From: Shigella phage KPS64
Direction: 5' to 3' (one strand)
Sequence record: MK562502
DNA length: 64,000 nucleotides
The first letter of the stretch is position 1. The number at the start of each line of letters is the position of its first letter. Below are positions 63,153-63,271 of the stretch, piece after piece. Below the pieces are notes generated by a model, which worked only from the letters and a program-made list of their open reading frames with translations, did no database searches and was not told the origin of the DNA. The position numbers and the translations under genes are program-made.

Positions 63153-63271
63153 TGGCAGTCAAGGTAGGAGTCGAACCTACTTACTCTTGAGGGAGCTACC
63201 CTCGGCAACTTTCCGACTTTCGTTTATCTCTTAACGCGTATCTAAGATAACTTACTCGTGTTGTCTTGACC
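63153..63271 (-). ncRNA. 119-nt tRNA-like RNA with canonical T-arm and CCA end but non-tRNA body
   Basis: 3' end is a perfect T-arm (GTAGG-TTCGACT-CCTAC) + acceptor strand + CCA; best acceptor partner (GGTCAAG) lies 119 nt upstream; interior holds hairpins TTATCT...AGATAA and GAGGG-TAGCT-CCCTC, with no canonical D or anticodon arm. Confidence 0.3.

Follow-up and report, generated by a model that had tools for sequence, protein, structure and literature searches.

A tRNA-derived gene with an insertion of about 40 nucleotides in the tRNA cluster of a Mooglevirus-like Shigella phage

Introduction

It has been known since the 1970s that transfer RNA (tRNA) clusters of phages encode extra stable RNAs, such as species 1 and species 2 of phage T4. 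The roles of these two RNAs are unknown according to a review of T4 (PMC3014915). Their genes, rnaC (species 1, 139 nucleotides (nt)) and rnaD (species 2, annotated with 119 nt), are located directly after tRNA-Arg(UCU). A tRNA-like shape is also found among Y RNAs, and bacterial and phage Ro60 proteins bind such tRNA-like Y RNAs (PMC4201824, PMC12135203). YrlA of Mycobacterium smegmatis has an acceptor stem of 7 base pairs (bp), is cleaved by RNase P and has CCA added (PMC4201824). The Ro60 protein of phage phiLo binds two phage Y-like RNAs, which were found through a CGAA motif (PMC12135203). Here we describe a tRNA-like element of 119 nt in Shigella phage KPS64 (sequence record MK562502). 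The element occupies positions 63153-63271 on the minus strand of the stretch of 64,000 nt that was analysed as a whole and is referred to as the window.

In this study, we show that the element is a tRNA-derived gene carrying an insertion of about 40 nt in place of nucleotides 8-9, and that it is an accessory presence/absence cassette after tRNA-Arg(UCU). We propose, with modest confidence, that the element is an accessory, non-decoding tRNA mimic which would be excised as a stable CCA-ended RNA. Both the element and a probable tRNA-Trp gene in its neighbourhood are missing from all inspected annotations.

Results

Removal of 40 nt yields a cloverleaf

An earlier note on this DNA had described a canonical tRNA 3' end (T arm, acceptor strand and CCA), a 7-bp acceptor partner GGTCAAG lying 119 nt upstream, and the two hairpins TTATCT...AGATAA and GAGGG-TAGCT-CCCTC. 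All of them are present when 63153-63271 is read on the minus strand (Table 1), and the boundaries given in the note are correct. The acceptor stem comprises 7 bp including a G1.U72 wobble, and with a 5-bp T stem, a UUCRANY T loop, the discriminator and CCA the element has these hallmarks of a tRNA. ARAGORN makes no call on it in default, intron (-i and -i0,120), transfer-messenger RNA (tmRNA; -m) or mitochondrial modes, and in line with the earlier note the default, intron and tmRNA modes find no canonical tRNA with other boundaries. Rfam, including RF00005, gives no match to the element at gathering score or at E<=10 when 64 kb or 4.5 kb are searched; with 396 nt the T arm alone is aligned, to the tmRNA model at 8.3 bits, and again no canonical tRNA is found. 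With the option -ps80, ARAGORN reports a 77-nt tRNA-Ala(agc) from nt 43-119 with only 5/7 acceptor pairs. Its cloverleaf consists of a D arm, GAGGG/CCCUC as an anticodon-type arm, a variable loop of 8 nt and the T arm.

The position of the extra sequence was mapped by a deletion scan, in which all 4969 single deletions of 1-89 nt were submitted to ARAGORN at default thresholds. A tRNA was called after 19 of these deletions, each time with the identical anticodon arm. Deletions of 40 nt (nt 10-49, corresponding to 63262-63223, and nt 11-50, 13-52 and 14-53) lead to a tRNA call on acceptor nt 1-7, and deletion of nt 10-49 joins the perfect GGUCAAG strand to the D arm. The equivalent deletion results in a default call also in Michonne, HP1, Sf19, mistaenkt and CHB7 (6/6 with the window). 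When acceptor stem and T arm were kept and the body was shuffled, a single tRNA was called in 300 sequences. The assignment as a tRNA-derived gene with an insertion is based on these two results, a cloverleaf upon removal of 40 nt in every tested homologue and 1/300 among shuffled bodies. Of the origins considered in the earlier note, it is the tRNA with an insertion that the deletion scan, the homologues and the shuffled control bear out. The insertion-free sequence has 57-67% identity to the 20 neighbouring tRNAs, whose mutual mean is 64%; no parent tRNA can be named, since it is equally distant from all 20.

The insertion (nt 8-49) stands where a tRNA has two nucleotides and holds an invariant ACAACAC-N-AGUAAG. 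The earlier note had seen a non-tRNA body with hairpins replacing the D and anticodon arms, a description that needs revision: nt 50-66 are the D arm, GAGGG/CCCTC is found at the place of the anticodon arm, and the 40-nt deletion leads to a cloverleaf. The D loop AGUCGGAAA is consensus-like (A14, R15, G18 G19, A21), and hairpin 2 exposes the formal anticodon AGC with U at position 37. Two other foldings were rejected. The helix that RNAalifold proposed between AGUCGGA and the T loop is disrupted in Moogle, lacks support from covariation and stands in competition with the T arm, which is invariant. A type II tRNA model, with hairpin 1 as anticodon arm or AAC/GUU as D stem, is broken in the Suspvirus copies.

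Conservation and compensatory changes

Homologues of 119-121 nt were found by blastn against phages in 24 phage records, all belonging to Mooglevirus or Suspvirus. A pattern scan of IMG/VR yielded 80 loci with four true copies, which are on contigs of those same phages, and a metagenome scan yielded one contig with a copy, from the same clade. The weak covariance-model matches in L084, L078 and L052 are long tRNA-like genes without relationship to the element, which the search pattern had caught. Complete E. coli genomes, searched with regard to host mimicry, contain no similar sequence. With regard to antisense targets, sequences complementary to the loop of hairpin 1 and to ACGAAAGUCGGAAAG are no more frequent in the window than expected by chance.

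Pairing statistics and the covariance model are based on an alignment of 13 sequences. In this alignment, 96.6% of the stem cells are paired, compared to 93.3 +/- 0.6% in shuffled alignments (0/500 reach the observed value) and 38-53% with slid partners. Hairpin 1 shows an exchange of U23:A47 and C23:G47 (6 versus 6 distinct sequences) and a change of U:A to U:G at 25:45; in Suspvirus its strands are CAUCUG/CAGAUG, with U:G exchanged for G:C at the top. Hairpin 2 shows an exchange of G74:C80 and U74:A80 (5 versus 6 sequences), and its base is either G:U or G:C. In the window copy, GAAGGG/CCCUUY of hairpin 2 has become GAGGG/CCCUC; as one base is gone from each strand, the helix is still perfect and one pair shorter. 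Acceptor and T stems are invariant except for A70->G (U.G), the single-stranded nt 8-21 and 49-63 are nearly invariant, and none of the 14 independent copies has a defect in acceptor stem, T arm or CCA. The loop hexamer of hairpin 1 changes from ACGCGU to ACAUGU, a central double change of GC to AU with self-complementarity retained, which is weak evidence because it is a single event. Between Mooglevirus and Suspvirus, identity is 85-90% for the element, 76-82% for the adjacent tRNA-Arg and mostly 75-88% for the downstream spacer. To judge from these patterns of sequence change, the element is under structural constraint.

An accessory cassette after tRNA-Arg(UCU)

The window derives from a Mooglevirus-like phage (Ounavirinae), the nearest record being Citrobacter phage Michonne (Mooglevirus) with 98.9% identity over the region. 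In the 64-kb window ARAGORN finds 20 tRNA genes at 60037-63942, every one of them on the minus strand. The element is located in a gap of 388 nt between tRNA-Arg(UCU) (63280-63355) and tRNA-Ser(UGA) (62802-62891), in which the inspected records have no annotation apart from spurious small open reading frames (ORFs). Between CCA of tRNA-Arg and G+1 of the element there are 8 nt, no terminator-like site was found in between, and no ORF of >29 amino acids overlaps 63153-63271. As to the punctuation of the cluster, position -1 is T in 17 of the 20 tRNAs, AAT precedes +1 in 12 and CCA is encoded in 19, followed by A/T-rich sequence. The element fits this pattern, with ...UUUUAAU directly before GGUCAAG... 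at its 5' end and ...GCCA directly before AUUAGU at its 3' end.

In Silverhawkium, Henu11 and Sl26 the exact empty site is found: CCA of tRNA-Arg runs straight into AATAGTTAGCAG. The boundary of the empty site is TGCCAA, which is common to both tRNA-type 3' ends. In Shigella phage Sf16 the identical slot is occupied by an HNH homing endonuclease gene of 348 nt (L015, 797-1144). The slot after tRNA-Arg(UCU) is a three-state polymorphism, being empty or filled with either the element or the HNH gene. The clean anatomy together with these natural knock-outs, in which sister phages have an empty site or an endonuclease gene, makes the question of what the element does directly testable.

Table 1. 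Features of the tRNA-like element in the 64,000-nt window (nt, numbering from the 5' end of the element)
Feature	Position	Strand	Basis and remarks
Whole tRNA-like RNA gene	63153..63271	-	119 nt here, 120-121 nt in relatives; homologue alignment, covariance-model matches
Leader/spacer ATTTTAAT, 8 nt	63272..63279	-	U at -1 is the expected RNase P cleavage context
Acceptor 5' strand GGUCAAG, nt 1-7	63265..63271	-	Pairs with 63157-63163; invariant in 13 sequences
Insertion/connector, nt 8-49 (42 nt)	63223..63264	-	Between acceptor strand and D stem; deletion scan
Hairpin 1 UUAUCU(U)...(G)AGAUAA, nt 22-48, within insertion	63224..63250	-	Compensatory changes
Palindromic hexamer ACGCGU, loop of hairpin 1	63234..63239	-	Alignment; ACAUGU in relatives
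D-arm-like CGAA-AGUCGGAAA-GUUG, nt 50-66	63206..63222	-	ARAGORN cloverleaf; invariant except G66->A in 2 sequences
Hairpin 2 GAGGG-UAGCU-CCCUC, nt 69-83, anticodon-arm homologue	63189..63203	-	Compensatory changes
Variable region AAGAGUAA, 8 nt	63181..63188	-	ARAGORN cloverleaf; contains second AGUAA copy
T arm GUAGG-UUCGACU-CCUAC	63164..63180	-	Stem invariant; one loop change G->A in Moogle
Acceptor 3' strand CUUGACU	63157..63163	-	Pairs with GGUCAAG
Discriminator G73 and encoded CCA, then A/T-rich trailer	63153..63156	-	Sequence

Comparison with known RNAs

Like the element, T4 rnaC and rnaD are situated within a tRNA cluster, on the strand of the tRNAs and downstream of tRNA-Arg(UCU). rnaC moreover has a T arm (CCGGG-UUCGAAU-CCCGG), an acceptor-like terminal helix, an enlarged 5' half, and a hairpin that directly adjoins the T arm. 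Its predicted fold, consisting of terminal helix, long arm, hairpin and T arm, has z = -4.6, and in-silico deletions in rnaC lead to ARAGORN tRNA calls, while those in rnaD lead to none. The length of 119 nt which rnaD has in common with the element is taken as coincidence. The terminal helix of rnaC contains mismatches and its CCA is not encoded, in contrast to the perfect 7-bp stem and the encoded CCA of the element, and unlike in rnaC the extra sequence of the element is a discrete 40-nt insertion at the junction of acceptor and D arm. Homology to either RNA was not detected. The covariance model gives 14 bits (E 0.29) for rnaC, which is the level of an ordinary tRNA, and no match for rnaD, and the Smith-Waterman scores of the element against rnaC and rnaD lie within those of 500 shuffles. 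As Rfam is without a family for rnaC or rnaD, the missing Rfam match is uninformative on membership. By analogy of architecture, and not by homology, rnaC would be the same kind of object as the element. The earlier note's suggestion of a stable RNA such as those of T4 holds in this respect, for architecture and location of rnaC, and does not extend to common descent. The element would represent a second example, unrelated to T4 species 1 and 2, of an extra stable RNA in a phage tRNA cluster.

YrlA-type Y RNAs resemble the element in their tRNA-like D and T arms, an acceptor-like stem and an extra module; a possible counterpart of their CGAA motif is present in the element. YrlA is non-decoding, as the element would be. 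The element differs from YrlA in having no match to RF02553 and in its ends, which form an acceptor stem, whereas the 5' and 3' ends of YrlA form the Ro-binding stem. The tRNA-like domain of tmRNA has likewise kept acceptor stem, T arm and CCA, lost the anticodon function and acquired a large insertion between the acceptor strands. Unlike tmRNA, the element is not called by ARAGORN -m, has no G3:U70 and no tag reading frame, and with 119 nt is far too small. The 20 neighbouring tRNAs agree with the element in strand, leader and trailer punctuation, T loop and encoded CCA. The element differs from them in its 42-nt instead of 2-nt connector, its non-canonical anticodon loop and its variable loop of 8 nt, and in being missed by ARAGORN and Rfam.

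tRNA genes with insertions of 40-75 nt after the D arm or the anticodon stem were also observed in large phages (L084, 7414-7539 and 10091-10221; L102, 4600-4714; L100, 6764-6914). All of these insertions contain a (U)ACAGCAA motif, and the genes are missed by ARAGORN. The one in L102 (4600-4714) is matched by Rfam with 49 bits over 115 nt.

A Ro60-like protein at the head of the tRNA cluster

In Michonne, the gene of gp89 (L099, 7491-8906, minus strand) lies directly upstream of the tRNA cluster and on the same strand. The protein comprises DUF2828 and DUF7788 and belongs to PHROG 850, "RNA-binding protein". Sequence searches with phmmer and with a profile against PDB sequences gave no link of gp89 to Ro60; the fold search alone was positive. 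For the AlphaFold model of gp89 (pLDDT 85, pTM 0.85) the top 10/10 PDB matches are Ro60/TROVE structures, including Thermus phage phiLo Ro60 with E 5e-8 and Xenopus Ro with a TM score of 0.63. According to this model, the protein heading the cluster has a Ro60 fold (TROVE + vWA). The family carries a DxSxS MIDAS motif and has members in 703 phage records. Those of mycobacteriophages are annotated as Ro-like, those of Ounavirinae as hypothetical or vWFA protein only. Michonne, SUSP1 and SUSP2 all have the Ro60-like gene at the head of the tRNA cluster, where it lies about 2-3 kb upstream of the element and is separated from it by several tRNAs; its position is about 1.4 kb past the end of the window.

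In two distant phages (49% and 43% identity; L100, 5001-6440, and L102, 5001-6410) the Ro60-like gene is again found directly before a tRNA cluster. L100 is a phage contig of 143 kb, in which a YrlA-like RNA (6707-6815, plus strand; RF02553, 40.9 bits, E 7e-6, gathering score 69) is located between the Ro60-like gene and 14 tRNAs. Its arms follow the order T arm, 7-bp acceptor-like hairpin, D arm. L102, a phage contig of 86 kb, has an RlaP-family nucleotidyltransferase, an RNA ligase and PNKP (1238-2224, 8875-11114) near the Ro60-like gene and the tRNAs. This RNA-repair neighbourhood resembles the bacterial rsr-yrlBA-rtcBA operon. In the approximately 250 Ounavirinae genomes with a Ro60-like protein we could identify no Y RNA. 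If the Ro60-like protein and the element were linked, Ro60/Y-RNA biology would extend to a large group of enterobacterial phages.

Beside the Ro60-like genes, repeats of the format 5' stem strand, UACAGCAA, 40-50 nt of A/U-rich sequence and 3' stem strand were observed in L099 (6431-7145, minus strand) and L100 (6541-6847, plus strand), as well as in L102 (4449-4950, plus strand) and L077 (3179-3891, plus strand). There are 4-5 copies beside each Ro60-like gene and on its strand, with about 0.01 expected by chance per 700 nt, and their stems vary between copies yet remain complementary. No UACAGCAA repeats are present in the tRNA part of the window. These repeats could be Y-RNA-like or processing elements.

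Discussion

Our favoured interpretation as a non-decoding tRNA mimic is built on the observed anatomy, conservation, compensatory changes and cassette behaviour of the element. The element retains the parts that would be read by tRNA processing, namely acceptor stem, D and T loops for the elbow, G73, CCA and punctuation. What decoding needs appears to be lost, given the 42-nt connector in place of nt 8-9, the altered anticodon loop, the variable region of 8 nt and the absence of an alanine pair, and a non-decoding role is probable on these features. The element would be transcribed together with its neighbours in the tRNA polycistron. RNase P would cut ahead of G+1, the usual endo- and exonucleases would trim the 3' side, and the product would be a stable RNA of about 119 nt with a CCA end. 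Such an RNA might act as ligand, decoy or competitor for a protein recognising the acceptor, T arm or elbow of tRNA, and would owe its specificity to the hairpin of the insertion together with the two single-stranded stretches that are invariant. The most concrete candidate for such a partner, a speculative one, is the phage Ro60-like protein.

Several points weigh against this interpretation. Processing and stability of the RNA are deduced from the grammar of the sequence. The sample is phylogenetically narrow, with 84-97% identity, and from this narrow clade only about 3-4 independent compensatory events can be counted. The paired deletion in hairpin 2 could have arisen by template switching in a quasi-palindrome without selection. 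Acceptor stem, T arm and D arm do not vary and thus contribute no covariation support. UUGCU (nt 64-68) has three mutually exclusive pairings, as a strand of the D stem, with AGUAA at nt 16-20 or with AGUAA at alignment columns 89-93, and the data give no choice among them. As regards the candidate partner, the element has no match to the YrlA or Y_RNA families of Rfam, even at E<=10, and a Ro60-like gene is present in 252 Ounavirinae records (>=80% identity) as compared to 24 records with the element, so that the element cannot be an obligatory partner of the protein.

In a canonical anticodon arm, a stem of 5 bp carries a loop of 7 nt in which position 33 is U and position 37 a purine, and the anticodon AGC would mean alanine, for which G3:U70 is the established identity pair. 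Measured by these rules the element is unlikely to decode, and we regard it as quite improbable that it is a working, if odd, tRNA whose AGC reads GCU and whose insertion is tolerated or removed post-transcriptionally. Without 40 nt the element does pass ARAGORN at default, the loop UUAGCUA of Sf19 and Suspvirus has U33 and a U32/A38 combination known from real tRNAs, and the seemingly real non-canonical tRNA-Trp at 62905-62987 indicates that odd tRNAs occur in the cluster. However, the loop reads [G/U]UAGCU[C/A] across the copies, with a pyrimidine (U37) at position 37 and an A34 outside the bacterial TadA context. Positions 32:38 co-vary as Watson-Crick pairs (G:C and U:A), so that the loop of Mooglevirus copies, which have G32:C38, closes to 5 nt, and the anticodon stem has just 4(+1) bp in the window and differs in length from that of the relatives. 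The 3:70 pair is U:A in 10 and U:G in 3 of the 13 sequences and never G3:U70, and a tRNA-Ala(UGC) is already encoded in the cluster according to ARAGORN. With respect to removal of the insert, the self-splicing core of group I introns exceeds 200 nt as against 40-42 nt here, and by inspection the junctions have no complementarity for a 3-4-3 bulge-helix-bulge. With respect to its tolerance, a review of natural non-canonical tRNAs lists no case of a long acceptor-to-D connector (PMC7609411). It is less far-fetched, although still unlikely in our judgement, that the element is a decaying pseudogene, an old tRNA with a 40-nt insertion and anticodon-loop mutations which is still excised, inert and in the course of being lost. 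The patchy distribution with clean loss in close relatives would agree with decay, as would the degenerate anticodon loop, the three private changes of the window copy, among them the shorter stem and the loss of the U68 pair, and the analogous T4 RNAs without known function (PMC3014915). Against decay, both hairpins, that of the insertion included, stay paired via double changes, the long single strands of nt 8-21 and 49-63 hardly vary, acceptor stem, T arm and CCA have been preserved in every independent copy, and the element is conserved at least as well as the flanking tRNA-Arg and better than the spacer. The degenerate tRNA that the earlier note had considered is thus recognisable in the anticodon loop and difficult to reconcile with a gene under structural constraint.

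The three states of the slot in sister phages, the TGCCAA microhomology of the junctions, a 9/12 promoter-like site (TTGACT-18-TACTAT) across the 3' end of the element and the DNA palindrome in the hairpin-1 loop (ACGCGT/ACATGT) raise the question of a DNA-level element, either cargo or scar of homing-endonuclease traffic, a slot filler or a promoter. We consider this very improbable: the compensatory changes keep RNA helices of the transcribed strand, G.U pairs among them, which in DNA are mismatched, the promoter-like score is at chance (3 sites versus 3.5 expected), and there is no DNA rationale for tRNA-type punctuation and an intact CCA. A Y-RNA-type partner of the Ro60-like protein, in which a tRNA shell serves processing and nuclease resistance while the CGAA-bearing insert binds the ring and gates or tethers it like YrlA/Yrn1, is to our mind about as doubtful as a pseudogene. 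In its favour, the cluster-heading protein of Michonne and the SUSP phages is predicted to have the Ro60 fold, with phiLo Ro60 among its structural matches, and its mycobacteriophage homologues are annotated as Ro-like. Known Y RNAs mimic tRNA and are encoded near Ro60, also in phages, with M. smegmatis YrlA as a precedent (PMC4201824). The element contains an invariant ACGAAAG, and CGAA was the motif by which the phiLo Y-like RNAs were found (PMC12135203). The invariant AACGAAAG (nt 48-55) agrees with 5/6 specified positions of GNCGAAN0-1G, of which about 0.5 matches are expected by chance in 119 nt, and this motif is a weak, post hoc lead. Equally post hoc and weak is the terminal helix of the element, G.U-G:C-U:A-C:G, which would have the same four pairs as the Ro-binding helix of vertebrate Y RNAs (hY1/hY3). 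What speaks against a Y RNA, apart from the missing Rfam match, is that the element occurs in just 24 of about 250 Ounavirinae with a Ro60-like gene, that its arms have the order of a normal tRNA and not the permuted order T arm, acceptor stem, D arm of YrlA, that the gene is outside the window, and that other RNAs are nearer to it, namely the TACAGCAA hairpins and the YrlA-like match in L100. Slightly more doubtful again is a specific version, to which both of these leads point, a phage Y RNA of a new type with a shell of ordinary order, RNase P processing, a CCA end and an insert that docks on the Ro60-like ring. Its palindromic loop hexamer might allow a kissing dimer, and the RNA would divert the RNA decay or repair of the host, or serve as a sink for a defence nuclease directed at tRNA.

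Neighbouring genes and further observations

A second unannotated tRNA-like gene of 83 nt is located at 62905-62987 on the minus strand. It has the acceptor stem AUGGGAC/GUCCCAU (A1:U72), G73, an encoded CCA and an anticodon loop CUCCAAA, which gives the anticodon CCA for Trp. Its anticodon stem covaries between GUAAG/CUUAC and ACGG/CCGU. ARAGORN misses the gene at default and calls a tRNA-Trp(cca) after removal of 4-6 nt of its oversized D region. The 25 annotated tRNAs of Michonne comprise neither Trp nor Tyr. The gene is far commoner than the 119-nt element and probably a real, non-canonical tRNA-Trp. A stretch in common with T4 rnaC (L097, 1409-1547, minus strand), ACUUA-U-AA..GGGUUCGAAUCC, covers the 3' strand of a hairpin and the T arm. 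This match, which is largely a generic T loop, has a local score of 26 compared to 14 +/- 2 in 500 shuffles.

About 13 nt upstream of this gene there is a promoter-like site, TTGACA-17 nt-TAAGCT, at 63000-63028 (minus strand). It has the same format as TTGACA-17-TAAGAT at 63617-63589 and was missed by the consensus scanner because its -10 hexamer matches in just 3/6 positions. The spacer 3' of the element (62997-63152, minus strand) is kept in all relatives, including those without the element, and contains the perfect 7-bp hairpins AUUGACU-UGAAAG-AGUCAAU and ACAUGUU-UUCCAG-AACAUGU as well as an AAGGAGG motif.

On the other side of tRNA-Arg, a non-coding stretch of 235 nt (63356-63590, minus strand) extends between this tRNA and a promoter-like site. 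It is conserved to 83-99% across relatives, more highly than tRNA-Arg, folds with z = -2.2 versus shuffles and is a candidate for a further structured RNA. Rfam gives sub-threshold matches of the tmRNA family, among them tmRNA_permuted with 34.7 bits at 63505-63692, in partial overlap with tRNA-Ile.

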